Assembly (NCBI GenBank): GCA_023145575.1
Contig: JAGLDN010000153.1
Span: forward strand, 1 to 46,776
Source of the DNA: Psychromonas sp.
GTDB taxonomy: Bacteria; Pseudomonadota; Gammaproteobacteria; Enterobacterales; Psychromonadaceae
Reading direction: 5' to 3'
DNA length: 46,776 nt
The notes beneath the pieces are model-generated. The model searched no databases. It had not been told where the DNA came from and was given only the letters and a program-made list of their open reading frames with translations. A program made the position numbers and the translations under genes. This document shows positions 22,226 through 46,776 of the stretch, one piece after another; position 1 is the stretch's first letter; every line of letters begins with the position of its first letter.

Positions 22226-22228
22226 CGT

Positions 22229-23257: not shown

Positions 23258-23288
23258 ATATGAAAAAACAACACAAGATATTTTTGAA

Positions 23289-24086: not shown

Positions 24087-24833
24087 ATGAAACTTCTTGA
24101 AAATAAAAATATTATTGTCACTGGATCATGTCGTGGAATAGGGCTTGCGACCAGTCAATTATTTGCTCAACATGGCGCCAATTTATGGCTCAATGGTCGC
24201 GACGAGCTAGCACTACAAACACTCAGCGCGAAGCTAACATCTCAATTTAAAAATAATAATCATGTGTGTTGTTTTGATGTTTCTGTCTATGATCAGGTTA
24301 AAAATGGTTTTCAATCTCTTTTTAAACAATGTAAAAAACTCGATGTATTAGTTAATAATGCTGGTATATTAGACGATGCTTTGATCGGTATGGTGAGCCA
24401 AAAACAAATTGCTCACACATTTTCAACAAACACTTATAGTGTCCTGTATTGTAGTCAATATGCACAACGATTAATGATACGAAATGGTGGAGGATCTATT
24501 ATTAATTTAGCATCTATTGTCGGTGTGAATGGCAATGCAGGGCAATCTGTCTATGCCGCGAGTAAGGCCGCCATCATTGGCGCGACATTATCTTTATCAA
24601 AGGAGTTGGCAAGCGCTAATATTCGTGTAAATGCAATTGCACCAGGCTTTATCGATACTGACATGGCGCGCTCAATAGGTGACGAGTTATATTTACAACG
24701 CGTTGATAGTATTGCAATGAAACGTGTGGGTAAAGCGCAAGATATTGCCAATACAGCACTGTATCTTGCAAGTGATTTGTCCAGCTATGTGACAGGCCAA
24801 GTTATCGGCGTAGATGGTGGTATGTTAATTTGA
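24087..24833 (+). CDS. FabG-like SDR oxidoreductase
   Basis: TGSCRGIG, NNAG, YAASK, RVNAIAPG and GQVIGVDGG. Confidence 0.92.
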   Translation: MKLLENKNIIVTGSCRGIGLATSQLFAQHGANLWLNGRDELALQTLSAKLTSQFKNNNHVCCFDVSVYDQVKNGFQSLFKQCKKLDVLVNNAGILDDALIGMVSQKQIAHTFSTNTYSVLYCSQYAQRLMIRNGGGSIINLASIVGVNGNAGQSVYAASKAAIIGATLSLSKELASANIRVNAIAPGFIDTDMARSIGDELYLQRVDSIAMKRVGKAQDIANTALYLASDLSSYVTGQVIGVDGGMLI

Positions 24834-24870
24834 GTCATTGTATCTCCTATACCCTTGTTACTGGAATTAT

Positions 24871-26295: not shown

Positions 26296-27346
26296 ATTGA
26301 TAACACTACCTGTTTATCGCCTAACGACAAAACAAAAATCGCCTTTATTTAAAAAGGCATTACAAAACTTAGCGCAATACCATTTTGAAAACAGTGAAGA
26401 TTATCGGTCAATCATACAATTTTTATATCCCGCGCAATGGCTTAATAAAGAGGTCCCTCCCCTGGCTGTCAGCCTTTTTAAACATCACCTACTAAAAAGC
26501 ATCGCAAATGATGATGTTTTCAAAATAACCACGTCATCAGGTACAACCTCTCAACACGTTTCGCGTATTGTTTTAGATAAAATAAATATTGTCCGACAAC
26601 AAAAAATATTGTCAAAAATAATGCAACAATGGCTGGGGCCAAAGCGACTACCCATGTTAATTATCGATCACGCCAATGTGATCAAAGATAAATTTAGTTA
26701 CTCAGCAAGAGGCGTCGGCATTCAAGGTTTATCTTTATTTGGTTATGATCATACCTATGCTTTACATGAGGATATGAGCATCAACATGGCAGCGATAAGT
26801 CAATTCTTTGAGACGTATAAAAACCAGCATATTATTATTTTTGGCTTTACTTTTATTATTTGGCAATACTTTATTGAGGTATTAAAAAAACATGAAAAGC
26901 ATTTTAAGCTTAATAATGTTACCTTGTTTCACAGTGGTGGTTGGAAAAAACTGCAAGCGTTAGCTGTATCAAATAAAACGTTTACCGCGCAAATTAAAGC
27001 ACAATTAGGTCAAATATCCGTGCATAATTTTTATGCCATGGTGGAACAAACAGGTACTATTTATGTCGAATGTGACGCGGGATATCTACATTGTCCCGTT
27101 TGGAGTGATGTGATCATTCGCAGTAAAAAAGATTTATCCGTCATCGAAGAGCTGGGAGTAGAGGGTGTTATTCAAGTGAATTCATTGCTAGCAACAAGCT
27201 ACCCTGGCCATGCGCTCTTAACAGAAGATCTCGGGGTTATCTTTGGTGAAGATAACTGCAACTGTGGGCTAAAAGGTAAATATTTCCAGGTAAATGGCCG
27301 TTTGAAAAAAGCACAAGTAAGAGGCTGTAGTGATACTCAATCTTGA
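26282..27346 (+). CDS. LuxE-like acyl-protein synthetase
   Basis: TSSGTTS..SRI, FGFTF, HSGGWKKL, YAMVEQ, SYPGHALLTEDLG and C-terminal RGC. Start ATG 26282 overlaps the upstream gene; ORF track gives 26198. Confidence 0.88.
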   Translation: MNWDELITLPVYRLTTKQKSPLFKKALQNLAQYHFENSEDYRSIIQFLYPAQWLNKEVPPLAVSLFKHHLLKSIANDDVFKITTSSGTTSQHVSRIVLDKINIVRQQKILSKIMQQWLGPKRLPMLIIDHANVIKDKFSYSARGVGIQGLSLFGYDHTYALHEDMSINMAAISQFFETYKNQHIIIFGFTFIIWQYFIEVLKKHEKHFKLNNVTLFHSGGWKKLQALAVSNKTFTAQIKAQLGQISVHNFYAMVEQTGTIYVECDAGYLHCPVWSDVIIRSKKDLSVIEELGVEGVIQVNSLLATSYPGHALLTEDLGVIFGEDNCNCGLKGKYFQVNGRLKKAQVRGCSDTQS

Positions 27347-28511
27347 AGCATATGCCGTAAAAATATTATTGCCAATCGACCGAACAACTAAAATAGATAC
27401 GACTTTTTGTTTGCCTCCTTTTTCAACTGACCTACTAAATGAATTAACTCAGCTAGGCACATTTTTAATGCGTTTTGGTCGCGAATTCCCCAATATTGTA
27501 GCGGCTGGGTATTGGTTAAGAAAAAGTAACCTTTTAACAATTAAGTCGCAATATCCTACGCAACAATTGAAAGCAACAGGCTGCGTTTTTCATATTGCGC
27601 CAGGCAATGTAGACACTCTTTTTTTTTACTCCATGATGGTGTCTGTTTTATGCGGCAACCAAACCATATTGAGGTTGAGTAATAAGTTAACGACAGATAG
27701 TCACGTTTTACTTGAATTGATCAATCAATTCTTTTGTAAATCGTCAGATAAACATCTAATTTTTTCATTAATCACTGTGCTTCAATATGAGCATAACGAC
27801 CTGATTAGTTCAAAAATATCTTCTGTTTCAACAGCAAGAGTTATCTGGGGAAGTAATAAAACCATTAAGCATCTTAGTCAATTTCCTTTATATAAATCAA
27901 CCAACAATATTTGCTTCCCCGACAGGTATTCGGTCGCCATCATTCAAATTGACACCGAGGCTCAAATTAAACCTGCTGTAGAGAATTTATTGCGCGATAT
28001 TCAACCCTATTTTCAACAGGCCTGCTCCTCGCCTAAAGTCGTCTATTGGTTGAATACCAAAACATGGATCCAAGAAAAATTTTGGCGGTTATTGTCCAAC
28101 CAATTAAATGAAAAAGAAACATTAGATACAAGCGACCTTATGGCGCAATTACTTTATCTACAACGTCTTCCATTATTACTTAATACGAGTATGAACCAGA
28201 ATACCTGTTTATTCAAAAAGTATGATCCATTACACTTAATCGAACTTGAATTTATTACCGTTGATAGCGTAAAGTATCATTGTGGACTTTGGGTGTTATT
28301 AAGCGTGCAAATTAATCAATTAAATGATGTGAAATTATTTGACCATTGCCAAAGCGTCACCCTATCTGGCATTGAACCAACACAATGCCAACATTGGCAA
28401 AAAAACACACAGCAACCGATGAAACGCATTTTACCCGCAGGGCAGGCCTTGACTTTTTCGCATAAATGGGACGGGGTGGATTTAGTTGCACGGTTGTCGG
28501 TTAATTGTTAG
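27330..28511 (+). CDS. LuxC-like acyl-CoA reductase
   Basis: VFHIAPGNV, RVIWG, FPDRYS, catalytic QQACSSP and WDG. Confidence 0.85.
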   Translation: MILNLEAYAVKILLPIDRTTKIDTTFCLPPFSTDLLNELTQLGTFLMRFGREFPNIVAAGYWLRKSNLLTIKSQYPTQQLKATGCVFHIAPGNVDTLFFYSMMVSVLCGNQTILRLSNKLTTDSHVLLELINQFFCKSSDKHLIFSLITVLQYEHNDLISSKISSVSTARVIWGSNKTIKHLSQFPLYKSTNNICFPDRYSVAIIQIDTEAQIKPAVENLLRDIQPYFQQACSSPKVVYWLNTKTWIQEKFWRLLSNQLNEKETLDTSDLMAQLLYLQRLPLLLNTSMNQNTCLFKKYDPLHLIELEFITVDSVKYHCGLWVLLSVQINQLNDVKLFDHCQSVTLSGIEPTQCQHWQKNTQQPMKRILPAGQALTFSHKWDGVDLVARLSVNC

Positions 28512-28570
28512 CGTCGTCTCACTGACGTTGCATTTTAAAGTAACATTAGTATCAACTATTGGCTGATAAT

Positions 28571-30010
28571 ATGGATATTAATATCAACGTTATCAAAATA
28601 TATGTTGCACCTGCAAACCCTGCTGGTCGGCAACTCATGCAAAAATTAAAGTCTCAAGGAATCAATGTCGTGGGTATGATGGATAATATAAAGGTTGGTG
28701 AAAATATTATCTCCTCTTCACAACCAACGCACGCATTTAAAGTTATTGTCGCCAATGGTGCCTTTCAATTGAATGTTGCAGAAGGCTTATTCAACAACGG
28801 CGTTAATATAAAGCAAATTTATATTGCTTCAAAGCAAGGATATATTAATCAATACTCTCGCAGTTTTACACGACGGCTTAGAACAAAGCTGACAACTATT
28901 TTCGTCCTAGCGATCCAATTATTACGCCTAATTCCTTACCGTCATCGTAGAGTATATTACGCAGAATCATTTGTTGACGCTAATATACTTGTACTGTATG
29001 CAAAAGATCGCGCTAACAATCAAGATGTGGTACTCGTTGTGGATAAACCCAAGGCGGCCTCAAGTGAACTCAATGCAATTAGCATTAAGCAACAGCCTTT
29101 GCTCGCATTTTTCTCAATGCTTTTTGCTCGCTCTTTTATTGTTGATCATGAATACCAATCTTTACTGTTCTCCTCATTAAGGCTTTTTGTGCCAGTAGTG
29201 CAGCTTTGGCATGGTTTACCATATAAGCACCTTAGTGGAAACGCGCATTACCACAATATTAATGATGCCTGCTTTATATCAAGCTCCACTTGGTTTAATG
29301 ATCATGTCTTTAGTAAAATATTTAATAGTAAACAATTTTCCAACATAGGTTATCCCCGTAATGATGTTTTTTTTCAAACAAAAATACAGCGGTCTTGGCT
29401 GAACGCTGAGCCTTTATCGACACTTGAAACAATCATTAATAAAACAGGACAGATCATAATTTACGCACCGACATATAGAGACAGTCAAGATGATAATTAC
29501 CCACTAAACTTTGATGAAATCAATCTTTGGTGTCAGCAACACAACTGTAGTTTTATTTTAAAATATCACCCCTTCATCTCCCGTACCATCACTGAAAATA
29601 TGGGAATTGCAGCGAGCGAACAACTCTCTCCATTACTTGATTTTAGCCATATTTATATTTATCCAAATGGTAAAAATGTATACCCTTGGCTTGCAGAAGC
29701 TATCATGTTAATTACTGATTATTCATCCATTGCGTTTGATTTTATGTTATCAGAAAAACCAATTTTATATTATCAATTTGATAAGGCGGAATATAACAAA
29801 ATACGTGGCGAGCCTTTAGTTGGAGACGATATTTTCATCAAAGGATCCCTTGTAACAACCTTTGCAGAGTTATTACCGGCAATGACTCAATCTCTTAAAT
29901 GTTTTGCAGATCCAAAAGAAAAACGCAATAAATTAATAATGAATGACCAACATCAAGCCTGCTCATCAGCAATTATTTCACTTATTAATGAAATAGAGCA
30001 ACAAGGATAA
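28571..30010 (+). CDS. TagF/TagB-like CDP-glycerol(polyol) phosphotransferase with N-terminal Rossmann-like extension
   Basis: QLWHG.P.K, GYPRND, IYAPTYRD, LKYHP and LITDYSSIAFDF motifs. Start ATG 28571 or TTG 28559. Confidence 0.9.
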   Translation: MDININVIKIYVAPANPAGRQLMQKLKSQGINVVGMMDNIKVGENIISSSQPTHAFKVIVANGAFQLNVAEGLFNNGVNIKQIYIASKQGYINQYSRSFTRRLRTKLTTIFVLAIQLLRLIPYRHRRVYYAESFVDANILVLYAKDRANNQDVVLVVDKPKAASSELNAISIKQQPLLAFFSMLFARSFIVDHEYQSLLFSSLRLFVPVVQLWHGLPYKHLSGNAHYHNINDACFISSSTWFNDHVFSKIFNSKQFSNIGYPRNDVFFQTKIQRSWLNAEPLSTLETIINKTGQIIIYAPTYRDSQDDNYPLNFDEINLWCQQHNCSFILKYHPFISRTITENMGIAASEQLSPLLDFSHIYIYPNGKNVYPWLAEAIMLITDYSSIAFDFMLSEKPILYYQFDKAEYNKIRGEPLVGDDIFIKGSLVTTFAELLPAMTQSLKCFADPKEKRNKLIMNDQHQACSSAIISLINEIEQQG

Positions 30011-30012
30011 AC

Positions 30013-30420
30013 ATGTCGAAAAACATTGTTGTAACCTATGGCTCCTTTGATCTTTTTCATATTGGTCACCTGCGACTACTAGCACGCGCTAAACAGTACG
30101 GAGACACTCTGATAGTGTTTGTATCCTCGGATGAATTTACTCAACAAAAAGGTAAGCAATGCTTGCTCCCTTATGAGCAACGCGCTGAAATGATTTCTGG
30201 CTGTCGCTATGTTGATAAAGTATTTACAGAACATTGCTGGGAGCAGAAAATTGAAAATATTGAAACGCTTAATGTTTCAACTTTCGTAATGGGCGATGAC
30301 TGGCAAGGGAAATTTGATTTTTTAAAAACTTATTGCGATGTTGTCTATTTGCCGAGGACCTCTTCTATTTCATCAACCTTTGTCAAGCAATCAATGCGCA
30401 TAATAGCAAATATTAATTAA
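30013..30420 (+). CDS. tagD: Glycerol-3-phosphate cytidylyltransferase-like
   Basis: TYGSFDLFHIGH, MGDDW.GKFDFL and YLPRT..ISST. Confidence 0.88.
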   Translation: MSKNIVVTYGSFDLFHIGHLRLLARAKQYGDTLIVFVSSDEFTQQKGKQCLLPYEQRAEMISGCRYVDKVFTEHCWEQKIENIETLNVSTFVMGDDWQGKFDFLKTYCDVVYLPRTSSISSTFVKQSMRIIANIN

Positions 30421-30442: not shown

Positions 30443-32797
30443 ATGAATAATAAAAATTTAGTGGCATTTACCCAATGCATCAAAAAGAGTAGCTTATATC
30501 AAGATTTTGTTGCCGCAATAAGTCACCCTGAAGTAACGCATGTCTCTTTTGATGTATTTGATACATTAGTTAGAAGAAGGTGCCATCTCCCAGAAAAAAT
30601 TTTTACTAAAGTCGTTGAGTGCCTTCCTGCTGATATTTCTGCTAATTTTTCACTAGACGCTACTGAATATCAACAAATACGGAAGGCTGCAGAACGATTA
30701 GCACGACATGATAGTCACAGTGAAGATATACATTTTGATGATATTTTCAAACAAATGATATTACCTCAAGCACACATTGACGTGCTGAAACAAAAAGAAA
30801 TAGAAATAGAAATAGAGCAAAGCTTTGCCGATCCTTTTTGTCACTTATTGATCAAAGCGGTGCAAAAGCTTGATAAGCAAGTGATATTTATATCCGATAT
30901 GTATCTACCTCATGCAATTATTAAACGGTTAATTGATAAATCTTGCAAGCTAACTAATTACCAATTATTTGTATCCTCTGAATTAGGAAAAACTAAGTAC
31001 ACAGGTAGCTTATTTGTGCATGTCTTATCCGAGCTTGGTATTAATGCCAGTAAACTCGTGCACATAGGCGATGACAGACTCGCAGATGTAAATTCACCCA
31101 AGATAATGGATATCAATAGTTTTTTATTTAATACCGACAAAGATTTTCTTGATATTTTGCTTCGAGAAAATAATTATCAAGTTGATTTACCAGCCAAAGT
31201 GAAGTTATCGCGTACTTTAGCAAGCTTATCAATGCCAAAGTATGAAAAAGATAGTCAACAATTTTTTTACCTGATGGGTGCTAGAATACTAGGCCCCATA
31301 TTAACACAAATGAGTCAGTGGGTAGTTGCCAATTGTTTACGATTAAAAGTAGATACGCTATTGAGCATGATGCGAGAAGGAGAAATATTTAAGGAGTGCA
31401 TAAACCGCCATATTAGCTGTCAATCTATTACAGCACTGACCACAGCCAATTTTTATGTTTCTCGACAGTCTACCTACTTACCATCAATGATAAATGCTGA
31501 TATTAAAGAGACTTTAGCTAAAATATTAAATCGTATGGGTTATACAATAGGCGATTTAATGAATGAATTTGAGATTAAGTCCTCACAATTACAGGCTTTT
31601 TCATCATTGCCTGTGAGTAGCTTAAGTAAGTTGGATGTGACAGGTAAAAATGTTTTATCCATCCTGAAAAAGGTCTTTAAGGATGCCTCTGTTAAGGTGA
31701 ACACTCAGATCAAAGAAAATCATCAACTATTTATTAAATACTTAAATCAAACCTTAGATTTTGAAGATGTCGACCAAAGTTTTGCTACCCTAGATTTAGG
31801 CCCAGGTGGCACGATAGCGAAACAATTATCAAAAGCCTCGACATTGCAAGCAAAAGTCAATTTCCAGTTGTTTTCTAGTCAACGCAGTTATGACAAATCT
31901 GTGGACATAGCGATTAAATCATTCTTGCCGCTCCTAGGTAAAAGTCACAAATCCAATGCCATTTTAGCGCGCTCTCCTGAAGTGATTGAGTATTTGCTAG
32001 TGGGAAAATCAGGCACGACCTTGGGCTATCAACGAGACAATGGAAAGGTGCAACCTGTGTGTGAAAAAAGAGAATTGAACGAGGCACAAATCCTTCAATA
32101 TGAGGCGTTTACTGAAGGAGTACGCGCTTTTCAAATTGTCGCTCAGACCTTAAATCTAGAACCTGCAGATGAGAAAGAGCGGGTCAGTTATACGCACCTA
32201 TTATCTCGATTAATTGATTGTCCGGTAAGCGATGAAGTCAAGTTTATGGGGCAATGTCAACATGAGGATAACTTTGGCACTCAAAACAAATACAACATTA
32301 TCAAAGCCGACAATATTAAATATGTTAAAGAAAAAGGCATCAATAAATTTTATATGAATTTTTGTAGGCAACCAAATGAAACTCAACGAAAAATGCCTTG
32401 GCCACAAGGAGTAATAACTCACTTGGAACCGAGTTTTTTAAATACGATTAATCGTGTTAATACTCACAAGGATGTACATTTTAGTGCAGCTCAGGAATTA
32501 ATTACCGTTTTAATCGCGAGCGATATTAACGATATTATTATTTATGGTGCAGGTGATTTTTATTTATATATCAAGCGATTTTTAGCCGAAAACAAAATTA
32601 AAGTGAGTGGCATAATAGATCGTCGAGCTCAGTTTTCGACTTTTAAAATAAATGATATTACGGTTTCTAGCATTCATAATTTTGATTTTTCGAAAACAAA
32701 AACCATTGTAATTGCATCAAGTGCATTTGTCTCTGAAATCAAAGCAGATCTTAGACAAGTAATCGATCTTAAAAAATATAATATTATTAATATTTAA
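30443..32797 (+). CDS. HAD phosphatase + phosphoribosyltransferase-like domain (candidate dual-domain ribofuranosyltransferase) + C-terminal Rossmann-like domain
   Basis: HAD: SFDVFDTL, ISDMY, K, HIGDD..AD. Second domain: MMREG, YVSRQS, PRPP-loop-like DLGPGGT and IEYLL. C-terminal IIIYGAG. Confidence 0.7.
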   Translation: MNNKNLVAFTQCIKKSSLYQDFVAAISHPEVTHVSFDVFDTLVRRRCHLPEKIFTKVVECLPADISANFSLDATEYQQIRKAAERLARHDSHSEDIHFDDIFKQMILPQAHIDVLKQKEIEIEIEQSFADPFCHLLIKAVQKLDKQVIFISDMYLPHAIIKRLIDKSCKLTNYQLFVSSELGKTKYTGSLFVHVLSELGINASKLVHIGDDRLADVNSPKIMDINSFLFNTDKDFLDILLRENNYQVDLPAKVKLSRTLASLSMPKYEKDSQQFFYLMGARILGPILTQMSQWVVANCLRLKVDTLLSMMREGEIFKECINRHISCQSITALTTANFYVSRQSTYLPSMINADIKETLAKILNRMGYTIGDLMNEFEIKSSQLQAFSSLPVSSLSKLDVTGKNVLSILKKVFKDASVKVNTQIKENHQLFIKYLNQTLDFEDVDQSFATLDLGPGGTIAKQLSKASTLQAKVNFQLFSSQRSYDKSVDIAIKSFLPLLGKSHKSNAILARSPEVIEYLLVGKSGTTLGYQRDNGKVQPVCEKRELNEAQILQYEAFTEGVRAFQIVAQTLNLEPADEKERVSYTHLLSRLIDCPVSDEVKFMGQCQHEDNFGTQNKYNIIKADNIKYVKEKGINKFYMNFCRQPNETQRKMPWPQGVITHLEPSFLNTINRVNTHKDVHFSAAQELITVLIASDINDIIIYGAGDFYLYIKRFLAENKIKVSGIIDRRAQFSTFKINDITVSSIHNFDFSKTKTIVIASSAFVSEIKADLRQVIDLKKYNIINI

Positions 32798-35696: not shown

Positions 35697-36855
35697 TAAT
35701 TTCTATTACAAGGTAATTGGTCCGTACATGTATGAGTGCTCCATGCGTTTATACGCGCTCATCCAAACACTCAATGAAAATAAAACGTTAAGAGTATATT
35801 TTTGTACCCGCGCAGGTATTACACTTCAACATATGTTAGATATGTTCATGAAAAAAAATAATTTAGTCTTAAATGTCGAGTTAGTGACCTTACCAGTTTC
35901 AAGGTTATCCGTTTTTATCGCATTGATAGGAGACTCACCCTTATATGCTGGGCAACAAGGTTCATTACTCTTCCCTGGCAAAAAGATAAAACAAATAATT
36001 AACTATTTACATAAAGGTAGAGAGAAAATAAATGTACAAGACTATATTAAGTTAATTCCTAAATCGATACTAACAATGAAGATCAGTCCTTGGTCTATAA
36101 GAGAATGGAGGAACTTTGACAGAGATAATATAAGTAATCAAATGTCATTTACAAAATATTCACAGCAACAAAAAGCTTTACTGAGTGAATACTTCCCTTC
36201 CGATATAGATCTTCATCTTATTGTTGATTCTGGCTTATACGGATCGACTATTGAAATGCTCTCTGCAATCGAATCTGATAAAAAAATCCTTGGTGCAATG
36301 GTTTACTTTTCAAATTACCGGTACGCGAACCCCGTTCCTCACTTTGATAATTGTACCGGATTAATGGCATTCTCTGGTAACGTCAATTTTGACATACCAC
36401 ACTCTTCAGTATTGCTACACTGGCACCTTATCGAAAATATATTAGAACCACAAAATATGAGTTCGATTACAAGTTTACCTGCAAATGTTAATATTCAAGA
36501 CATCAAATATAACAGCAATACCCAACAAGTTTTTAACTATTTTAATAGTGACAATAATTATGATATTAAAGAGGTTTTGTATCGCTTGATGAAAATCCTT
36601 GCAATACCAACAAAGGAAAACATTAAACAAATATATACAAGTCAAGTGTGTAACGATGTTGATGGCACATTACTAAACGTTATTCTCTCGCAAGAATTAC
36701 AGAAAAAGGTGAAGGCAAGAGATAAACTAAGTCACTATCGCGTTGGAATTATTAATAGAAGCTTATGGAAACCTGCACAAAGAGTGATATCTTATGGCAT
36801 ATGGGGGTATATGTTTAATTTATTTACATGGTATTATAAAAGATATATAAAATGA
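35668..36855 (+). CDS. Stand-alone glycan phosphoribosyltransferase-like protein (paralog of the 30443 middle domain)
   Basis: IGP, YFCTRAG, PVSRLS, IVDSGLYGST, LIENILE and LW.P parallel LGP, MMREG, YVSRQS, DLGPGGT, IEYLL and W in the 30443 protein. Start ATG 35668 likely. Confidence 0.6.
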   Translation: MVKNSKINSDNFYYKVIGPYMYECSMRLYALIQTLNENKTLRVYFCTRAGITLQHMLDMFMKKNNLVLNVELVTLPVSRLSVFIALIGDSPLYAGQQGSLLFPGKKIKQIINYLHKGREKINVQDYIKLIPKSILTMKISPWSIREWRNFDRDNISNQMSFTKYSQQQKALLSEYFPSDIDLHLIVDSGLYGSTIEMLSAIESDKKILGAMVYFSNYRYANPVPHFDNCTGLMAFSGNVNFDIPHSSVLLHWHLIENILEPQNMSSITSLPANVNIQDIKYNSNTQQVFNYFNSDNNYDIKEVLYRLMKILAIPTKENIKQIYTSQVCNDVDGTLLNVILSQELQKKVKARDKLSHYRVGIINRSLWKPAQRVISYGIWGYMFNLFTWYYKRYIK

Positions 36856-38867
36856 CTAAAAAAACAATGATAAAGAAATCCGTAATAGAAATCTTTATCA
36901 GTGGCTCTAAAAATGCCCGCGACTATCCTCTGGGCACTAATATAACCACTTCTTTTTTAATGATTAAAAATAAAATAACTTATACATCACCTGCTTCAAC
37001 AAGGGTAATAGGCTTTCGTACTTACCCTGCCGCTTATTCACACCATCTTATTGATTTAATGCGTATCATTGAATGTCATATGAAGGTGAAATTATATTTT
37101 ATAATCAGCATTAATGAATTTAACCAAGATCCTGATTGGTATATTACACATACCGCTGGTTTTAATTTGTTGCTATGTGATGATGAACAATTTAGTCTAC
37201 TATATTTTTTTGATATTGTTTTCTTACAAGAAAATTATCTTTATAATACAAATGTTTTACCACAAAACGTTGCCAAAATTGGTTTGGCGCATGGCGTAGA
37301 TGTTGACTTAAGCATGTCATTAACATTATTTGGTGGTGCTTTTGAATATGACTATTTATTGCTTAGTAAAGCACCAAACAAGCACACTTTCGGGGAATAT
37401 TTAGACACTTTTCCCAGTCAATTACGAGATCACTGTAGTAGTAACATTACTTTGATCCCTTTTGGAAGTCCTAAACTTGATCGAATGATCAAAGCAGTTA
37501 ATCTGACGAGTCAATCCGCAATTATTTATCATCTATCTCATCTTTCAATGGAAGCTGAATGGGTTCTTGACGTGATTTACCCAACGTTGTTGTTGTTACT
37601 AAAAAACTTTCCCAATAATCAAATCATTTTTAGACCATTTCCAAAATATATTAATAGTGATTTTATCAGAGATCTTGAATTAAGTTTCTCGACATATCCT
37701 AATTTTTTCTTAAGCAAAGGGGCCTCATATATTGATGATTATGCAAAGGGTGCAGTGATGATAGCCCACAGAAAATATGATGAGCATTTATTTAATTTAG
37801 CGACAGGTTTTAAGACGATAATCTATGAGCCGAATCAGTCAATGCTAACACTTGAACCGTCAATAAAACCTGATTATATTATCTATAGTAATACGGATTT
37901 AGTGACGCAAGTCAAATACTGCTTGGAATTTGCAAAAACAATCATGCCAGACAATCGATTTGATATTGCCAAACAAGCGGGTATTTATAATGTAGGAAAA
38001 TCTTTGAATGCACTTATTAGTGCGATTGAAACGATTTTGAGAAAGCAAGACCCCCCCGATACCTGGCCGATAATTGCGCTACAATCTGATGTAGATATAC
38101 CATTAAACACCTTACTGAAAATATATCTTTATAGCGGCCTTCCATTTCATAGCATCGCACTTATAGCGGCAAGCAAATTCCCAAAAAGTGTTATATTTCA
38201 ATTATTGGTTAGTGAGGCTTGTTCAAGATGCTTTAGTTTTGAAGGTGAATATTGGACAATAGCATTTGATGCTTTTTATAATGCCATCAATCACGTAAAC
38301 CTGTCCCCTGTTATGAAACATATGTTAACGCATTGGTGGATATTAAATGGTGATAAATTGATGCAAAGACATCAAATAGAATTACAAATGCGCGAGGCTA
38401 AACTCAGGAAAAAAGAGATTTTCATCATTAAGCAAATGGAAACAATAACACGCAGATTACAAAATATAGCAGGGAGTTACGAGTATTTTCTTGAAAATAT
38501 TGAAACAAGTTGCATTTATGAGTTAGGGTCTAAATCTGAAACTCTGAGTCTGTCTCTTATCGGATCAGAGGAATTAGCAGTATCATTTATTCAATGGAAT
38601 AATATTCACAAACGCCATCATATTGTCAGTGTTCATCATTTAGATGCCGAAAAGCACGGCAGTAAATTTTATCAATATACTATCGAAAGCCTTACATCTC
38701 TTGCACAAAAAAAAAATCCTATTTTAATTTGTTATAAAGAGCTTTATAAAAATGTTTATCTGTATTTAAGACGAACCCAGCACTACACACAAGACATCTT
38801 ATTTTGGGATAATAACCCTTGCTGGAAAGCATTAACGATACCCATGTTAGCGAAAGATACTTTGTGA
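36852..38867 (+). CDS. Hypothetical protein with divergent TagF/GT-B-like motifs (candidate CDP-donor phosphotransferase)
   Basis: 671-aa ORF; IGLAHG, PFGSPKLD, IIY and IIFRPFP occur in the order of TagF HG / GYPR.D / IYAPT / K.HP. C-terminal Rossmann-like segment. Confidence 0.5.
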   Translation: MTKKTMIKKSVIEIFISGSKNARDYPLGTNITTSFLMIKNKITYTSPASTRVIGFRTYPAAYSHHLIDLMRIIECHMKVKLYFIISINEFNQDPDWYITHTAGFNLLLCDDEQFSLLYFFDIVFLQENYLYNTNVLPQNVAKIGLAHGVDVDLSMSLTLFGGAFEYDYLLLSKAPNKHTFGEYLDTFPSQLRDHCSSNITLIPFGSPKLDRMIKAVNLTSQSAIIYHLSHLSMEAEWVLDVIYPTLLLLLKNFPNNQIIFRPFPKYINSDFIRDLELSFSTYPNFFLSKGASYIDDYAKGAVMIAHRKYDEHLFNLATGFKTIIYEPNQSMLTLEPSIKPDYIIYSNTDLVTQVKYCLEFAKTIMPDNRFDIAKQAGIYNVGKSLNALISAIETILRKQDPPDTWPIIALQSDVDIPLNTLLKIYLYSGLPFHSIALIAASKFPKSVIFQLLVSEACSRCFSFEGEYWTIAFDAFYNAINHVNLSPVMKHMLTHWWILNGDKLMQRHQIELQMREAKLRKKEIFIIKQMETITRRLQNIAGSYEYFLENIETSCIYELGSKSETLSLSLIGSEELAVSFIQWNNIHKRHHIVSVHHLDAEKHGSKFYQYTIESLTSLAQKKNPILICYKELYKNVYLYLRRTQHYTQDILFWDNNPCWKALTIPMLAKDTL

Positions 38868-38989
38868 TATTAAGCGACAATTAACTTGCCCGATCCGCGA
38901 CAACTAACGCGACCAATTTTGGTAAACTTCAGACACGTTTAATCACTAAGATATTTTACATGCCTAAACATCGAATGATCTTTTAAGGG

Positions 38990-39480: not shown

Positions 39481-39761
39481 AGATGGCAGGTCAAGGCACA
39501 ACATGTGGAAGTAGATACTCCCTTTTACATTGTTGAGCCTAAAGCTGCATTTCGACAAAAGTACAAACTTGTGAACATAAAGCATACAGTTCAATTAGAC
39601 CAGTATATGATATTACGGTATTATGGGTTGTCAACTTTATACTTTTAGCTAAGCCTCAACTCTGCCCGTGGTCAATTTCACGGTTTATCGAAGATGTACG
39701 CTTTAATTATAATTCTCTAAAGTAGTTGCAATTATTATTTATATAACTTTAAAGGTTTAAC

Positions 39762-40754
39762 ATGCCCCTTCAACGAAATGGCGATAGTCACGAAAACAAC
39801 GTCTTTACATATATTGAATTTGGTTCGATCAATCGTAAAAAAGGCAAGAAAGAAGTATATGACTTCCGTGTTGATCAAAAAGCATATGACTGGTTGATGC
39901 ATGCTCGCTATTCTAATGATATATTTGCTTATAAGCTGATGACTGATGCCTTAATAACGTTGAATATTGAACAAATAATTAGCACTTTTAAAAATGAAAT
40001 TCATCATGATAATGATTTCATTTTCAACCTAAATAAAAAAATTGCGTTAGATATTACAGGTGACTCTTTTTTTGAATTAGGACAAACTCTTTATGGTTGT
40101 ATTGAGAGTATTGATTTTATTAATAAACTAGAGCAACATTTGTTTCCTGCAAATTCACAGAAAATATGTTTAAAAAATATTAAATGGTTCGGTGTTGATA
40201 TCTCATCATTTTTTAATTTTATGGCACGAAAAATACATGAAGGTTACAAAATAGATACATCAACCCTGCTCTGTGATGCACCTGCGCGTTATGATGTGTT
40301 TTACGCAAAGGGGGTTACCTTGTTATATGCCATTAACTCGGCAAGGGAACTATTTAATCTTGTAACTAACGCTAAAATAGCAGTATTTGATTACTCTATC
40401 AGTTTAACTGAACAAGAGGACACATATATTGGGACGGGCAAGTCTGTACGGTTCTTGAGTAAAGGTCAATTCAACTCTTTTGTTAAATTGGTACGTAGTA
40501 CAGGGAAAGATGTTTGGGTGAGGGGCAATCTAAAAGGTGATTTTAAAACCAACAGATTATATTTGGAAGTCGTAATCGCTGATGATTTTTTATTCAACAC
40601 TTTTATGAAAAAGCAAAATGATTATATTTTAACGTTACAAAAAAATGAGCCAATGCTCTTTGCAACCTTGGTACATAATAAAAATCCAAACTATTGCAAT
40701 TGGTCTAAATTTTCAGATAGTTGTATACCCATGAGTCTTCAAGATGCAAGGTAA
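39762..40754 (+). CDS. Hypothetical protein with degenerate class I methyltransferase fold
   Basis: FFELGQTLYG (motif I-like), WFGVDIS (motif II) and YDVFYAKGVTLLYA (motif IV-like) in canonical order. Confidence 0.5.
   Translation: MPLQRNGDSHENNVFTYIEFGSINRKKGKKEVYDFRVDQKAYDWLMHARYSNDIFAYKLMTDALITLNIEQIISTFKNEIHHDNDFIFNLNKKIALDITGDSFFELGQTLYGCIESIDFINKLEQHLFPANSQKICLKNIKWFGVDISSFFNFMARKIHEGYKIDTSTLLCDAPARYDVFYAKGVTLLYAINSARELFNLVTNAKIAVFDYSISLTEQEDTYIGTGKSVRFLSKGQFNSFVKLVRSTGKDVWVRGNLKGDFKTNRLYLEVVIADDFLFNTFMKKQNDYILTLQKNEPMLFATLVHNKNPNYCNWSKFSDSCIPMSLQDAR
40724..40749 (+). repeat. ERIC/MITE-like terminal motif (copy 2), overlapping the 3' end of ORF 39762-40754
   Basis: tatacccatgagtcttcaagatgcaa; 21/26 identical to 7512-7537. 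Confidence 0.55.
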
Positions 40755-41000: not shown

Positions 41001-41522
41001 ATGGTTATTTGGTTAATTGGCTTGTCAGGCGCAGGTAAAACCATGATAGGCAAAGTACTTTATCAACAATTAAAAAACAAAAAACAGGCAACGGTGTTTG
41101 TTGATGGTGATGACATTAGGGCTATTTTTGCGCAAAGTTCACTACATGACTACTCAATTGAAGGACGGCGCATAAGTGCCGAGAGAATACAAGAAATTTG
41201 TTTATGGCTGGATAAACAAGGAATCGATGTGGTTTGCTGTAATTTGGGACTTTTTACCGATATTAATAATAATAATCGAAACATATTTTCAACTTATAAA
41301 GAAATATTTATTGATGTGCCAATTAAAAATTTAATAAATAGAGATAATAAGGGATTATATAGTGCTGCACTTAACGGCGAAAGATCAGACGTAGTGGGAA
41401 TTAATATCAAGTACACGACTCCTCTCTTTGCCGATTTAATTATAAAAAACAGTCAAAAGACAAAAGACATAAACAGATATGTTGAAAAAATAATATTAAT
41501 GATCAATAAGGACGTAATGTGA
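41001..41522 (+). CDS. APS-kinase-like protein; probable cytidine diphosphoramidate 3'-kinase (Cj1415-like)
   Basis: IWLIGLSGAGKT P-loop, VDGDDIR, RDNKGLY and VVG; co-operonic with Cj1416/17/18 homologs; RBS GGAG. Confidence 0.8.
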   Translation: MVIWLIGLSGAGKTMIGKVLYQQLKNKKQATVFVDGDDIRAIFAQSSLHDYSIEGRRISAERIQEICLWLDKQGIDVVCCNLGLFTDINNNNRNIFSTYKEIFIDVPIKNLINRDNKGLYSAALNGERSDVVGINIKYTTPLFADLIIKNSQKTKDINRYVEKIILMINKDVM

Positions 41523-42964
41523 ACGCTTATCCATATTGTTATGGCCCATTACTTGAAACACCACAGAATTATATGTACAGCCCCTATTTAGGCCCTGGAT
41601 TTATTTCTGATTGGGCTTTATCGCGAGGATCCTATTTAACTAAATTTGGCACTCCCGAGCTTATAGTGTTAACTCCACAATATTCTTTTTTCAGTTCAGA
41701 TCACCCTAATGCTTTTTCGACAAGAGCTATCATAGAACAGCTTTGCTTGGATCTAAGGGGGGGAAATAAAACCTCATATGATGTGACATACTGGCTTGAT
41801 CGTTTGCTAAAAAAATTCGAAGTGAGTAAACGCATTTACAAAAGTTATGGCAAAAATTCGCCACATTATATGATTAGAGAGAGTGGCTTTGAGGATTTAA
41901 ACCTTTATTTACTGTTCGCTGAAGTACTTGTTCATGCGTGGAAACACAAATCAATATCACAGTATATTAATGGATTACTGAAGTTAGTAGATACACTGAT
42001 ATCACAAACCGCTCTTTTAAATATAAAGCAAAAGAAACACCTAGCATGGGTTATAAATAAAGAAAAAATTATTTTAGATAGCATCATTAGCCGCTTAAAA
42101 TTAACAGAAATGAATGATTTTCAGCACGATTCAATTCAATTTGACTCATTGTCATTTAATGAGTATATGTCGCCACATATAGAGCCATCTTACTCTGAAT
42201 TTACATATAAGATGAATAATGATTGTTCTTATGATACTAAACAACACCCTAAGATATTACTTTTGTTTGGACATACTGTCCGATCAGCTAGTTATATCCA
42301 GGCCCTTTGCAATGCTAATATTACACCTCATTCTATTATTGCTTATGGTCAGCAACAAGAGCAACCGACATCATCAAGAATACTCAATATGAGTACTTAT
42401 TCTGATCTTTTTTCTCCTAATCTTCAATTAAATCTTCTACAAAGTTTGATCCAATCTCAATATTTATATACATTATCGACATCAAATGAGCTCTCTTCTC
42501 CTGATTTATTAAGGCAAATTGCTGAGGTAGATCCTGACTTAATTATTTATTCTGGATATGCAGGACAGTTAGTACCAGCATCCATTATTAGCAATTACCA
42601 TGTATTGCATATTCACGCTGGATGGCTTCCTGATTTTCGAGGCAGTACAACATTGTTTTATGAAATAATTGAGGAGAAGATGTGCGCTACCACTGCTATT
42701 TTATTAGATGAAACGATAGATACTGGTGACATTGTTGCTCAAAAACACTTTGCAATGCCGACACCTGGTATGGATGTAGATCATCTATATGATAATATGA
42801 TCAGAGCTGATCTATTAATCGAGATTTTAACGCATTATAACGAATCTGTAGAAGATTGGAAAATAACACCTCAAACCCAACATTGTTTGCCTTATTTCAT
42901 TATTCATCCTTTATTAAAGCATTTGGCGATGTTGATCATTGATAAAGAGAAAGTGGCTCTATGA
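41519..42964 (+). CDS. Fusion of an unknown helical N-terminal domain (~200 aa) and a formyltransferase (Fmt/PurN fold)
   Basis: C-half PDLIIYSGY.GQ, LHIHAGWLPDFRGST and LDETIDTGDIV. N-half has YMYSPY.G, LLKKFEV.KRIY and YINGLLKLVDTL. GTGA and ATGA overlaps with both neighbours. Confidence 0.78.
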   Translation: MNAYPYCYGPLLETPQNYMYSPYLGPGFISDWALSRGSYLTKFGTPELIVLTPQYSFFSSDHPNAFSTRAIIEQLCLDLRGGNKTSYDVTYWLDRLLKKFEVSKRIYKSYGKNSPHYMIRESGFEDLNLYLLFAEVLVHAWKHKSISQYINGLLKLVDTLISQTALLNIKQKKHLAWVINKEKIILDSIISRLKLTEMNDFQHDSIQFDSLSFNEYMSPHIEPSYSEFTYKMNNDCSYDTKQHPKILLLFGHTVRSASYIQALCNANITPHSIIAYGQQQEQPTSSRILNMSTYSDLFSPNLQLNLLQSLIQSQYLYTLSTSNELSSPDLLRQIAEVDPDLIIYSGYAGQLVPASIISNYHVLHIHAGWLPDFRGSTTLFYEIIEEKMCATTAILLDETIDTGDIVAQKHFAMPTPGMDVDHLYDNMIRADLLIEILTHYNESVEDWKITPQTQHCLPYFIIHPLLKHLAMLIIDKEKVAL

Positions 42965-45345
42965 CAATTGATCATCCTCAATTTATTTTTGGCAGCAAAT
43001 CGGAAACGTTAACGCGCCTTAAACCGTTATTAAACGAATCTACAATTTTACCAATGATATATTTTTCGCAAGAAGATTGGCAACATGATCGCAACCTAAT
43101 TTTAACAAGGATCAGAGCATTTTCATCGGCAGAAAAATTAATTATTAGGAGCAGTGCGAAAAATGAAGACAGCCATGAAAGCTCAATGGCGGGAGCTTAT
43201 TTAAGTTGTCTTAATATCTGCATTAATAATGAAACAGGGCTCATAAGCGCAATTGAAAAAGTTATCGGATCCTTTAGTGAATTTTCTCAAGCAGATAATC
43301 AAATATTAATTCAACCTATGTTAACTGATATCAACATGTCAGGTGTTATCATGACGCACGATATTGAGCGTGGCTCTCCGTATTATGTCATAAATTATGA
43401 TGATGAGAGTGGGTTAACCGATACCATTACTGGTGGCGTGGGCATTCACAAAACGGTACTTATTTACCGATATGTGTCGCGAGATAAGATTCATTCTACT
43501 CGCATAAAATCACTATTACTTGCTTGTACCGAGATAGAAAAATACTGTGCCAATGTGCCACTTGATATTGAATTTGCTATCAATAAATCGGGTAATGTTT
43601 ACATATTTCAAGTTCGACGTATTACTCTGATCAATACATGGCACCCTGTAACAGAGCGAAAAATAGCGAGAACGTTAAAGTATGTCACACAGTTTATTCA
43701 TCAAACGATGAACAAAAAAAAAGGGGTGTATGGTAAAAAAACAATACTGGGTGTTATGCCTGATTGGAACCCCGCAGAAATTATTGGCACAACGCCTCGG
43801 CCTTTATCTTCATCTTTATATCGCTATCTAATTACCGATTCTATTTGGCGGACATCACGTGCTGCAATGGGCTATTATCATCCTAAAAACGAAGACTTGA
43901 TGGTAATGATTGATCATCATCCCTATATTGATGTGAGAAATAGCTTCAACACTTTTCTACCTGACAAACTCTCAAGCAGCATTAAAGAAAAATTACTTAA
44001 CGCGTGGATAGCTAGATTAGAAAAATACCCTGAAATGCATGATAAAATTGAGTTTGAGATAGTTCAAACCTGTTTAGATTTTACTTTTGATCAGGATTTT
44101 GAAAATCGTTATAAAAATCTATTAAGTGCCTCTGAGCTGATCGAATACCGCAATGCACTTTGTTCATTAACCTATGACGCAATACTTATGGCAAAAAGTG
44201 GAACATTATCCCAAGCAACCACAATGATTAATGAACTTGCTATTGAACAATCAGTTCATGATTTGCAATCTCGCCAAGCAGATCTGAGCACAGTGCGGGA
44301 TTTATTAATTTCATGCAGAGATAAAGGCACTTATGCTTTTTCAATACTCGCACGTCATGCCTTTATTGCTGAGGCTTTACTACGATCAATTGTTTTTCGA
44401 GATGTGTTGAGTCCTGAACGTTCGCAACAATTTAAACAATCCATCCACACCATTACAACGAATTTAGCTTCTGAATATAGTGAAGTGTGCCAAGGTTTAA
44501 AGCCCGTAAAAGAATTTCTAAATATATTTGGTCACCTTCGCCCAGGTACCTATGATATTACTTCCCTTCGTTATGATGAGCGAAATGATCTTTTTAAGGG
44601 CTCTATTAACAAGACAATAACAAATATTGCAACTTCGTTCACTTTAAATAAATCTGAACGAAAAAAACTACGGTTGTTATTAAAAGAAGCTCAATTTTCA
44701 ATTGAGGTTGAACAACTTTTAACATACATGAAAAGTGCAATTAAAGGTCGTGAATTTGCTAAATGTGTCTTTACGCGTGACTTATCTGATGCGCTTGCCA
44801 CTTTGACGCAATGGGGACAAAAAAACGGATTATCACGGAAGGATCTTTCCTACCTTGATATCAACATTTTACTCGACACATTAACTAATCCATTACTTGA
44901 CGATCCTGACCGCGTTTTATTGCATTATGTAGAGAAGGCAAAACGTGAATGCGAGCAAGCAAACTCACTCAAGTTAGGGCATTTGATTTCAAATCCTAAT
45001 AATGTTTTTGTCATACCCATTCATCGTAGTTTGGCGAACTTTATCACCAGCAAAGTGGTTGAATCTGCCTTAAGTGTATTGTATTTAGACACACCTGCAA
45101 CAACGAAGTTAAGGAATAAAATAATCTGTATTAAAAATGCAGATCCTGGCTATGATTGGTTATTTACCAAAGGGATTGCCGGATTAATTACTCAATACGG
45201 TGGCACAAATTCACATATGGCCATCCGTTGTGCTGAGTTTTCTATTCCTGCTGCTATCGGTTGTGGTGAACAACTATTTTCTCGCATTCTCAAATCTCAA
45301 AAGTTAGTATTAAATTGCCGAGATAAAAAGATTGAGTTGTTGTAA
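42961..45345 (+). CDS. L-glutamine kinase (Cj1418-like; PPDK/PEP-utiliser family)
   Basis: ATP-grasp IIRSSA..ED, LIQPM and DIEFA..YIFQVR; central MPDWNPAEIIG and GHLRPGTYDI; phospho-His domain ADPGYDWLF..GGTNSHMAIRCAE; 794 aa. Confidence 0.88.
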   Translation: MTIDHPQFIFGSKSETLTRLKPLLNESTILPMIYFSQEDWQHDRNLILTRIRAFSSAEKLIIRSSAKNEDSHESSMAGAYLSCLNICINNETGLISAIEKVIGSFSEFSQADNQILIQPMLTDINMSGVIMTHDIERGSPYYVINYDDESGLTDTITGGVGIHKTVLIYRYVSRDKIHSTRIKSLLLACTEIEKYCANVPLDIEFAINKSGNVYIFQVRRITLINTWHPVTERKIARTLKYVTQFIHQTMNKKKGVYGKKTILGVMPDWNPAEIIGTTPRPLSSSLYRYLITDSIWRTSRAAMGYYHPKNEDLMVMIDHHPYIDVRNSFNTFLPDKLSSSIKEKLLNAWIARLEKYPEMHDKIEFEIVQTCLDFTFDQDFENRYKNLLSASELIEYRNALCSLTYDAILMAKSGTLSQATTMINELAIEQSVHDLQSRQADLSTVRDLLISCRDKGTYAFSILARHAFIAEALLRSIVFRDVLSPERSQQFKQSIHTITTNLASEYSEVCQGLKPVKEFLNIFGHLRPGTYDITSLRYDERNDLFKGSINKTITNIATSFTLNKSERKKLRLLLKEAQFSIEVEQLLTYMKSAIKGREFAKCVFTRDLSDALATLTQWGQKNGLSRKDLSYLDINILLDTLTNPLLDDPDRVLLHYVEKAKRECEQANSLKLGHLISNPNNVFVIPIHRSLANFITSKVVESALSVLYLDTPATTKLRNKIICIKNADPGYDWLFTKGIAGLITQYGGTNSHMAIRCAEFSIPAAIGCGEQLFSRILKSQKLVLNCRDKKIELL

Positions 45346-45965
45346 TGCATGAAAAACACACTTTTAAAGCTTTAATTTTTATAAGCCAACGAGTCGATTA
45401 CCTTAAAGAGCGTAATGAAACAAGAGATTCGATTGACCAAGCATTAACTCAGTGGGTGATCGCAGCTGATGCAATTCCCCTGTGTTTACCAAATGTTTTA
45501 TCAGAAGACATGCTAAATCAATTGCTAACACAACTAAAGCCAGATGGTATTATTCTCTCTGGCGGCAATAATATCGGCCAGTATTTGCAACGAGATAGCA
45601 CTGAACACTTTTTGTTTAATTGGGCGTTGTTAAACAAAATACCTGTATTAGGCATTTGTCGTGGTATGCAACTGATCGGTAAATTATCTGGCGTATCGCT
45701 AATCTCTGTTAGCGGGCATACGGCAGTAAAACATAAAATTGAGGGAATATTAAACGCTGATGTGAAGAGCTATCATGATAAAGTATTAGAGAATGTGCCT
45801 AGTGGTTTTAATGCATTAGCTTATGCTTTAGATGGACATCTAGAAGCCATTAAATCTACCTCAGATTGGCCCTGTGAGGCATGGATGTGGCATCCTGAAA
45901 GAGAAACCCCTTTTAACTCAATATGGCTAGCACGGTTTCGATCATTAATCAAAGAGAATAAATAG
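45345..45965 (+). CDS. gamma-glutamyl-CDP-amidate hydrolase (Cj1417-like; class I glutamine amidotransferase/peptidase C26)
   Basis: ISQRVD..ETRDSIDQ, LSGGN, catalytic GICRGMQ and MWHPERE. Confidence 0.85.
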   Translation: MHEKHTFKALIFISQRVDYLKERNETRDSIDQALTQWVIAADAIPLCLPNVLSEDMLNQLLTQLKPDGIILSGGNNIGQYLQRDSTEHFLFNWALLNKIPVLGICRGMQLIGKLSGVSLISVSGHTAVKHKIEGILNADVKSYHDKVLENVPSGFNALAYALDGHLEAIKSTSDWPCEAWMWHPERETPFNSIWLARFRSLIKENK

Positions 45966-46676
45966 ATGAAAGCATTAATATTAGCTGCTGGTAGAGGAAG
46001 TCGAATGAACGATCTCACAGAGCACCGCCCAAAATGTTTAGTTAAATTAAATGGAAAAACATTACTTGCCTATCAGTTAGCTGCGTTACAGGAAGCTGGG
46101 ATAACTGATATTGGCATTGTAACTGGCTATCGTGCAAAAATGCTTAGGCAATTTAACTTAACAGAATTTCATAATGCTCGTTGGTCACAAACTAATATGG
46201 TGCATTCGCTTAGTTGTGCTAAGACATGGCTAAAAGATGATTGTATCATCAGCTATTCAGATATATTCTATAGCGCATCAGCTGTTACCTTGTTGATTAA
46301 AACGAAAGCTGATATTGCGATTACCTACGATCCAAATTGGTTAGAGCTATGGAAAAATCGTTTTGAAGATCCACTCAGCGATGCTGAAACATTTCGCATA
46401 AATGATCACAATGAGTTAATGGAAATTGGCGGTAAGCCACAAAATATTGAGCAAGTGCAAGGCCAATATATGGGATTGCTTAAGTTTACCCCAATAGGCT
46501 GGGCTAGACTTGAAGAATTACGTCAAACGCTTACACCAGAATTACGAGACAAAATACACATGACAGGTGCACTACAAAACATAATTAAAAGGCGTATATT
46601 AGCGATTAAAGCAATCCCCTATTTGGAACGATGGGGAGAGGTTGATTCAGCAGAAGATTTAGCATGTTATCACTAA
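45966..46676 (+). CDS. CTP:phosphoglutamine cytidylyltransferase (Cj1416-like; LicC family)
   Basis: ILAAGRGSRM, PKCL, TNMVHSL, YSDI, W..RFEDPLSDAETF, GQYMGLLKF and W.EVDS..DL. Confidence 0.85.
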   Translation: MKALILAAGRGSRMNDLTEHRPKCLVKLNGKTLLAYQLAALQEAGITDIGIVTGYRAKMLRQFNLTEFHNARWSQTNMVHSLSCAKTWLKDDCIISYSDIFYSASAVTLLIKTKADIAITYDPNWLELWKNRFEDPLSDAETFRINDHNELMEIGGKPQNIEQVQGQYMGLLKFTPIGWARLEELRQTLTPELRDKIHMTGALQNIIKRRILAIKAIPYLERWGEVDSAEDLACYH

Positions 46677-46776
46677 TCGCCCTCTTGCCAAGCTCATATC
46701 ATATTACATAACTAGATTTATTTGTAATACCTAAAGAGCATGAGAATAAAAAGCTTTATCAGACGTCAACTACCTT

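Follow-up and report, generated by a model that had tools for sequence, protein, structure and literature searches.

A predicted phosphoramidate cassette in a Psychromonas flagellar glycosylation island and a possible N-formyl phosphoramidate on Aeromonas flagellin

We analyzed a 46,776-nt stretch of DNA (the window) that makes up the whole of contig JAGLDN010000153.1 in a Psychromonas sp. metagenome-assembled genome (MAG; GCA_023145575.1; 500 contigs, 94% complete; C61 and G000 in our numbering). Its right-hand end carries a seven-gene cassette that probably makes a cytidine diphosphate (CDP)-activated phosphoramidate, N-formylates it, and transfers it to a pseudaminic acid (Pse)-anchored flagellin glycan. 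The parts of this reading differ in strength: judging from the genes, it is very probable that the cassette makes a donor with a phosphorus-nitrogen (P-N) bond, it is likely that flagellin glycan is a target, and the evidence leans modestly towards the formyl group sitting on the phosphoramidate. We give about an even chance to a wider proposal, namely that the flagellin glycans of Aeromonas and marine relatives carry N-formyl phosphoramidate, sometimes methylated, by way of this cassette, whose His-type formyltransferase and TagF-like transferase family would both be new, and that the group has already been measured on Aeromonas hydrophila ATCC 7966 and read as phosphate plus methyl groups. 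What is new here is the reinterpretation of masses and the predicted formyl group, rather than the four-enzyme donor set.

Predicted donor-pathway, formyltransferase-like and candidate transferase genes

Five open reading frames (ORFs), all on the + strand, are joined by the junctions GTGA, ATGA, TAATG and TAG/ATG, just as the initial annotation of this DNA had described. That annotation gave four functions for the five genes; the four families were confirmed, and the fifth, which it left unnamed, proved to be a formyltransferase-like fusion. The first gene (41001..41522, +) encodes a 173-amino acid (aa) protein resembling adenosine 5'-phosphosulfate (APS) kinase that is likely a cytidine diphosphoramidate 3'-kinase (Cj1415-like). 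It scored 150.9 bits against a cut-off of 127 with NF004041 (PRK05541), a model that we take to be linked to Cj1415, and fell far below the cut-offs for true CysC. The phosphoenolpyruvate (PEP)-synthase/PPDK-like kinase of 794 aa (42961..45345, +) is likely an L-glutamine kinase (Cj1418-like), with 943.7 bits against a cut-off of 501 for NF004508 (PRK05849), presumably the Cj1418 family. The MPDWNPAEIIG signature that had been attributed to it is present and starts at residue 266; His752, Arg63 and DWNPAE are invariant in 120/120 homologues, one of which (48% identity) carries the JGI name glutamine kinase. A search of the PDB returned no relative of this kinase. It is followed by a 206-aa class I amidohydrolase (45345..45965, +; PF07722 Peptidase_C26; Cys105/His183/Glu185), likely a gamma-glutamyl-CDP-amidate hydrolase (Cj1417-like), and by a 236-aa LicC-like nucleotidyltransferase (45966..46676, +; PF12804 NTP_transf_3), likely a CTP:phosphoglutamine cytidylyltransferase (Cj1416-like), for which LicC was the best PDB match (E 5e-13) and no specific CTP:phosphoglutamine model was among the matches shown. 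The cytidylyltransferase gene adjoins the kinase gene in 16/16 genome loci. The reading of these genes as a P-N donor pathway, as first proposed, is thus supported by their family scores, by catalytic residues that are conserved and by their order.

The fifth gene (41519..42964, +) overlaps both of its neighbors inside the cassette and encodes a 481-aa fusion of a ~200-aa domain of unknown function with a formyltransferase-like domain (PF00551 Formyl_trans_N, residues 285-424; PDB formyltransferases E 2e-8). Its counterparts are two separate genes in the genomes G123, G129, G159 and G418. H364, H366 and D401 of the formyltransferase domain are invariant in 70/70 aligned sequences, and a C-terminal HPLLKH motif is invariant in the family. 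The partner domain (41519-42120) looks helical, contains a KKFEVSKR motif, and is without a Pfam match or a named function. Among the metagenome loci that we collected (80 kept of 580, 43 of these at least 10 kb long), it accompanies the formyltransferase in 26 of the 43 long ones.

Two further genes upstream complete the cassette. The first (36852..38867, +) encodes a 671-aa candidate phosphoramidate transferase with a TagF/Bcs3-like N-terminal GT-B domain. The window protein itself gave no Pfam match, and PF04464 was matched by 6 of the 12 aligned family sequences (a GT61 false positive, row L043:8024, was removed from the second version of this alignment). The model of its N-terminal part (predicted local distance difference test, pLDDT, 92) has the GT-B fold, and Foldseek placed Bcs3 as the top match (E 2e-10). 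A word-index search returned only the protein itself, and a profile search returned 1801 members; no named Cj1421/22 was found among the 20 members looked up. The family lies beside the cassette in 8/12 island loci and 0/4 other loci. Fold and synteny together make it reasonably probable that this protein is the phosphoramidate transferase. The second gene (39762..40754, +) encodes a 330-aa protein that is methyltransferase-like by its model and position. It has no Pfam match, and its low-confidence model (pLDDT 56) matched mostly S-adenosylmethionine-dependent methyltransferases (best Z 8.1). Scoring its profile against 399 other class-level genomes gave no match, a sequence search of the PDB gave nothing convincing, and its position is kept in G123 and G418. 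The reading of four donor enzymes in the initial annotation is supported; what it had overlooked is the formyltransferase together with the two upstream genes for the candidate transferase and the methyltransferase-like protein.

The biosynthetic route that we propose begins as in Campylobacter jejuni, where glutamine is converted to glutamine phosphate, CDP-Gln, cytidine diphosphoramidate and its 3'-phosphate (available portions of PMC11800397 and PMC6429109), an order given enzyme by enzyme in the accessible part of the Borg preprint as well. By family membership and analogy with that pathway, the 794-aa kinase would phosphorylate the glutamine amide via His752, the cytidylyltransferase would make CDP-Gln, the amidohydrolase would free glutamate, and the small kinase would add the 3'-phosphate. 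The formyltransferase-like domain would then place a formyl group from N10-formyl-tetrahydrofolate (THF) on the P-NH2, either on the donor or after transfer, a step suggested by its motif and by a +106.976 Da increment in Aeromonas (see below). The TagF-like 671-aa protein would move the group onto a sugar hydroxyl of the Maf/Pse-anchored glycan with release of the cytidine nucleotide, and there are weak indications that the 330-aa protein may methylate it.

Flagellin glycopeptide masses of Aeromonas hydrophila ATCC 7966

Genome G418 contains the same seven-gene run as the window, located between luxC and pseC, with the formyl partner as a separate gene. The order is transferase candidate, methyltransferase-like gene, small kinase, formyl partner, formyltransferase, kinase, hydrolase and cytidylyltransferase, and the corresponding identities to the window proteins are 35, 49, 57, 37, 48, 57, 32 and 42%. 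The G418 kinase is identical to ABK38911.1 from Aeromonas hydrophila subsp. (cluster P0298). The ABK accession series is used for ATCC 7966 island proteins in the available part of bioRxiv 10.1101/2024.06.23.600306, where the island runs from luxC to pseC with glycosyltransferases (GTs) of 318, 366, 378 and 277 aa. After luxC, G418 encodes proteins of 318, 366, 387 (longest start) and 277 aa that belong to the same GT families. According to the accessible portion of a second preprint (bioRxiv 10.1101/2024.05.20.594992), deletion of AHA_4152-4171 lowers the mass of ATCC 7966 flagellin. The accession series and the layout indicate that ATCC 7966 likely has the cassette within AHA_4152-4171.

In the latter preprint, as far as its available text goes, the flagellin sugars of ATCC 7966 were assigned phosphate and as many as four methyl groups, and third-stage fragmentation (MS3) of those sugars was not possible. 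We converted the 24 precursor m/z values printed there to glycan masses. Eight unmodified forms gave a base glycan mass of 1164.462 +/- 0.013. Among the 16 modified ions, 11 sit 0.98-1.04 Da under every phosphate-plus-methyl value, a displacement that isotope picking cannot produce. Two of these 11 fit phosphoramidate (+H2NO2P: 78.979 and 78.992 vs. 78.982, within 0.009 Da), and the other nine fit formyl-phosphoramidate (+CH2NO3P, with or without CH2), with a mean of 106.976 +/- 0.011 vs. 106.977 and every ion within 0.021 Da. The ATCC 7966 masses fit a P-N group rather than the plain phosphate that had been assigned. We also considered aminoethylphosphonate as the +107 group and rejected it, as it is 0.038 Da off and neither G418 nor the Psychromonas MAG yielded a PEP mutase over cut-off.

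Several features of the mass data and of the formyltransferase count against this assignment. The m/z values were printed to two decimals and came from two instruments. Two of the 16 ions fit phosphate plus methyl and the M+1 peak of the formyl form equally well, and three fit no model and are perhaps misprints. Sulfamate analogues (78.973 and 106.968) lie within error, and isomers such as phosphate plus amidine have the same mass; we prefer P-N over these alternatives because of the genes in the cassette. The strain's possession of the cassette is likewise deduced rather than read from its locus tags. In the formyltransferase domain, His364 stands where aligned methionyl-tRNA and sugar formyltransferases have Asn.

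This last substitution speaks for a rival explanation, in which the flagellin glycan carries a plain or O-methyl phosphoramidate, as in Campylobacter capsule, and the formyltransferase-like gene acts elsewhere (on an amino sugar) or not at all. That explanation is also favored by the +78.98 forms, which exist without formyl, and by the lack of the two-domain formyl pair in 8/12 island loci. Against it, dimethyl-phosphoramidate, like aminoethylphosphonate (107.014), misses each of the nine ions by 0.025-0.057 Da, as do the dimethyl/trimethyl masses as a set, whereas the formyl model comes within 0.021 Da; the prominent masses in the published material available include no glycoform with formyl alone; and the formyltransferase-like gene lies inside the cassette, overlapping both neighbors. 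We therefore regard a group without formyl as unlikely and retain formyl-phosphoramidate as the preferred reading of the +106.976 Da increment.

The flagellar island and the distribution of the cassette

The window cassette is preceded on the same strand by a flagellar glycosylation island. In order, this comprises fliC (11011..12738, +; PF00669/PF00700), encoding a 575-aa flagellin that is the likely glycan carrier; flaG and fliD; a Maf flagellin glycosyltransferase gene (17037..19016, +; PF20157 and PF01973); a tetratricopeptide repeat (TPR) gene; pseF, pseI, pseG and pseH for Pse synthesis (20434..23849, +; TIGR03584, TIGR03586 and TIGR03590 over cut-off, TIGR03585 90.9 vs. 93.1); and a block of fabG-like, AMP-ligase, luxE and luxC genes (24087..28511, +) of the kind typical for Aeromonas group II flagellar islands (PMC7874193, available part). 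Then follow a CDP-glycerol glycerophosphotransferase gene with a glycerol-3-phosphate cytidylyltransferase-like gene (28559..30420, +; PF04464 and PF01467; TIGR01518 152.9 vs. 165.4), a gene for a 784-aa ribofuranosyltransferase-like protein (30443..32797, +; PDB Bcs3 E 4e-23, ribofuranosyl transferase 7SHG E 4e-14), and GT2, haloacid dehalogenase (HAD) and methyltransferase genes. The glycerophosphotransferase and tagD-like pair occupies the place of Fgi-1 after luxC, as it also does in the G259 and G123 islands, and suggests a glycerol-phosphate link in the flagellin glycan. The HAD gene (34175-34915) weakly matches the 784-aa protein and a 411-aa ORF (35620-36855) has no Pfam match; together they may represent a second ribofuranosyltransferase that has been split, with the latter half assigned from our view of its motifs. 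A second flagellin gene (58% match) is present on contig C228.

The cassette recurs in such islands. The initial annotation overstated the rarity of the four-enzyme set: the kinase is common, with E<=1e-100 reached by at least 6882 homologues; among named homologues, the closest (53-58%) are from Aeromonas, Shewanella, Motilimonas, Alteromonas and Pseudomonas. Its occurrence is patchy, with a full-length copy in 1/36 other genus members (G026) and in 14/401 order-level genomes, the Psychromonas MAG included. In nine of the other 13 order-level genomes, the kinase gene lies in a maf/pse island, enclosed on both sides in eight and cut by a contig end in G159; fliC was in the stretches fetched for eight of these nine loci and not in that for G395. 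In genus g39, 5/46 genomes have the cassette kinase, and the three added ones (G416, G418 and G423) all carry it between luxC and pseC. A 17-row tree grouped the window kinase with those of G418, G159, G123 and G129 in a clade with support 100/100, whose members are all island-linked and all have both formyltransferase halves. As the relatives are non-independent, these island-linkage figures are counts and not a statistical test. A genome-contig search for related loci yielded three loci only, all distant. The proposal that the donor serves a flagellin glycan gains support from this recurrent enclosure in maf/pse islands and from the P-N-fitting flagellin glycopeptide masses in an Aeromonas strain that likely shares the cassette.

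Other arrangements were also encountered. In O-antigen, exopolysaccharide (EPS) and capsule loci (L024:2326-5298, L026:3-1691 and L048:1-1839), the kinase has a ~200-aa N-terminal extension and there is no separate small kinase; these extended kinases form a clade of their own. In G038, a 2.2-Mb genome, the cassette is accompanied by a gene for 250 aa and an unknown of 795 aa and lies among housekeeping genes (L029:13160-19968 and L030:2-2655), with no glycan locus nearby.

The window itself ends abruptly. The last cassette gene stops 100 bases before the contig end, which is formed by a mobile-element terminal repeat (46757..46776, no strand) that marks the contig breakpoint and has 54 matches in the MAG, nearly all at contig ends. 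The repeat is flanked by TA only, so partner contig ends could not be paired; from this flank, the element may be IS630-like. No loose end was found in contigs from four other sequencing runs. The statement in the initial annotation that the block closes the island therefore goes beyond what the contig can show. Its remark that recognizable capsule or O-antigen export and polymerase genes are missing agrees with our family scan of the window proteins, which matched no export, polymerase or kps family. Repeats common to many other contigs are present in the long spacers at 1-320, 2816-4441, 15460-17036 and 38868-39761.

This truncation leaves room for the idea that the donor decorates lipopolysaccharide (LPS), capsule or EPS, with the cassette either simply inserted next to the flagellar island or part of a polysaccharide locus past the contig end. 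The other genus member with the kinase (G026) has it in a wzx locus, and capsule polymers are the typical setting for TagF-like and ribofuranosyl transferases. From the literature, in the portions available, unmethylated phosphoramidates occur in Xanthomonas and Shewanella LPS (PMC3907429), and in A. caviae the pse genes are common to flagellin and O-antigen (PMC7874193). Set against these points, the nearest kinase clade is flagellar-island-linked in 5/5 cases. A search of the 94% complete MAG found no KpsS/C (PF05159), Wza (PF02563) or Wzx family; the MAG does contain one Wzz-family gene, and O-antigen-type genes on contigs C202 and C304. In the genus, 10/42 genomes carry a window-type maf; of the eight examined, five (G036, G015, G016, G030 and G411) have islands closed by pseC/pseB-like genes, with fliS next in four. 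The closing genes in the genus are pseC-pseB-fliT-fliS and not export genes. A polysaccharide as the sole destination is accordingly quite improbable, and flagellin glycan remains the favored target.

A different concern is that the cassette is a decaying, unexpressed acquisition, or that the substrate of the kinase is not glutamine. The genome looks insertion sequence (IS)-rich: mobile elements are present in many copies, and IS-like repeats lie between genes of the island. G259, the closest relative examined, shares the window genes up to 32.8 kb and then diverges without a cassette at the same place. (Between its two flagellin genes, on L064 and L065, G259 carries roughly twelve ORFs of 430-460 aa that resemble one another, together with a second nonulosonic acid operon; these ORFs may be transposases, their weak matches recurring on several contigs of the Psychromonas MAG.) A further point in favor of decay is that pseB was not found in the MAG. 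Upstream of the cassette, scans for promoters and terminators stayed at chance level. Raw RNA runs gave 2 and 15 matching reads, and the contigs of one RNA run span genes and spacers alike, so no conclusion on expression was drawn. Yet all seven frames are intact and coupled, the catalytic residues are invariant, and several studies, cold-seep and gill metagenomes among them, have DNA runs with near-identical sequence. Decay or another kinase substrate thus seems very unlikely, and we keep to a working glutamine-derived donor pathway.

Further observations from the genes and their distribution weaken the case for a flagellar phosphoramidate. The function of the window enzymes and the glycan of Psychromonas are predicted from genes alone. 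For the amidohydrolase, NF045546 (gamma-glutamyl-CDP-amidate hydrolase) is the best NCBIfam match and reaches 66.9 bits vs. a cut-off of 250. In VIA-align, TagF/Bcs3 tied with epimerases for the 671-aa model (Z 15-16), and the 671-aa family is missing from 4/12 island loci. Since glycerol-phosphate and ribofuranose transferases stand where Aeromonas has Fgi-1, the acceptor sugar would differ between the two. Of the 13 order-level genomes, the remaining four have the kinase in a wzx/O-antigen-like locus (G026), an EPS locus, a kps locus and a stand-alone position. The 43 long metagenome loci include maf in two, fliC in one and a NeuB/PseI-like gene in 13; outside Enterobacterales, the flagellar-island link of the cassette is weak. 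Finally, a pseC-like gene is present at C371:466-1620, and nothing in the MAG, the neighborhood of this gene included, scored over the pseB cut-off. The PseB family was best matched by an FnlA-like dehydratase from an O-antigen-type locus (C202:2875-3906); this enzyme may supply the first Pse step, or pseB may be unassembled.

Comparison with known systems

If the proposal is true, phosphoramidate moves from capsule and LPS onto a glycan that is attached to protein, a formylated form is added, and the existing ATCC 7966 flagellin dataset needs to be re-read. It would also bring a family of candidate phosphoramidate transferases, as well as a formyltransferase whose acceptor is unusual. Capsule phosphoramidate of C. 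jejuni serves phages as a receptor and influences serum resistance (PMC9561416 and PMC3907429, available parts), and a flagellar phosphoramidate may matter for flagellotropic phages and host recognition. The reading is cheaply testable, as genetics, flagellin purification and mass spectrometry have already been published for a type strain. Our literature search, judged from search listings with subscription papers mostly outside reach, found no phosphoramidate-bearing flagellin and no report under formyl phosphoramidate wordings. The word "phosphoramidate" in a paper on a C. botulinum flagellar island (PMC2674064, accessible text) occurred in a reference title only and was set aside.

The closest biochemical parallel is the C. 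jejuni O-methyl phosphoramidate (MeOPN) capsule pathway (Cj1415-Cj1418; transferases Cj1421/Cj1422), which has the same four donor enzyme types acting from Gln, ATP and CTP, with the kinase, hydrolase and cytidylyltransferase genes adjacent as in the window. The window cassette differs in lying in a flagellin glycosylation island rather than a kps locus, and in having an inserted formyltransferase-like fusion, a formylated predicted product and a TagF-like candidate transferase. As far as its genes indicate, it works like the Campylobacter donor pathway, yet it falls outside the kps-linked MeOPN capsule system. TalE of talopeptin/phosphoramidon synthesis is likewise a PPDK-like kinase that makes an N-P bond; it differs in its dipeptide amine substrate, its <20% identity to Cj1418 and its gene context (PMC6482885, available part).

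In its setting, the window resembles the group II polar islands of A. hydrophila ATCC 7966 and A. piscicola AH-3, sharing the pse genes, the fabG-AMP-luxE-luxC block and a variable transferase region; such islands make extended flagellin glycans (PMC7874193, available part). Unlike them, it has a PF04464 glycerophosphotransferase, not the Fgi-1 GT2, directly after luxC, and it adds ribofuranosyltransferase-like genes and the fused formyltransferase. The portions of the Aeromonas papers available to us (PMC7874193; bioRxiv 10.1101/2024.05.20.594992) assign phosphate and methyl groups and make no mention of phosphoramidate.

The two proposed new activities also have recognizable relatives. The 671-aa family shares the GT-B fold and a weak profile match with the CDP-alditol phosphotransferases TagF and Haemophilus Bcs3 (PF04464), whereas its identity to them is 10-15%, its predicted cargo is phosphoramidate and not alditol phosphate, and the fold search leaves epimerases equal. 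The formyltransferase-like domain has the HxxxLPxxRG motif and the IDxG aspartate of N10-formyl-THF N-formyltransferases (Fmt, VioF and PurN), and departs from them in its His in place of the motif Asn, its invariant HPLLKH, its partner domain and its predicted P-NH2 acceptor.

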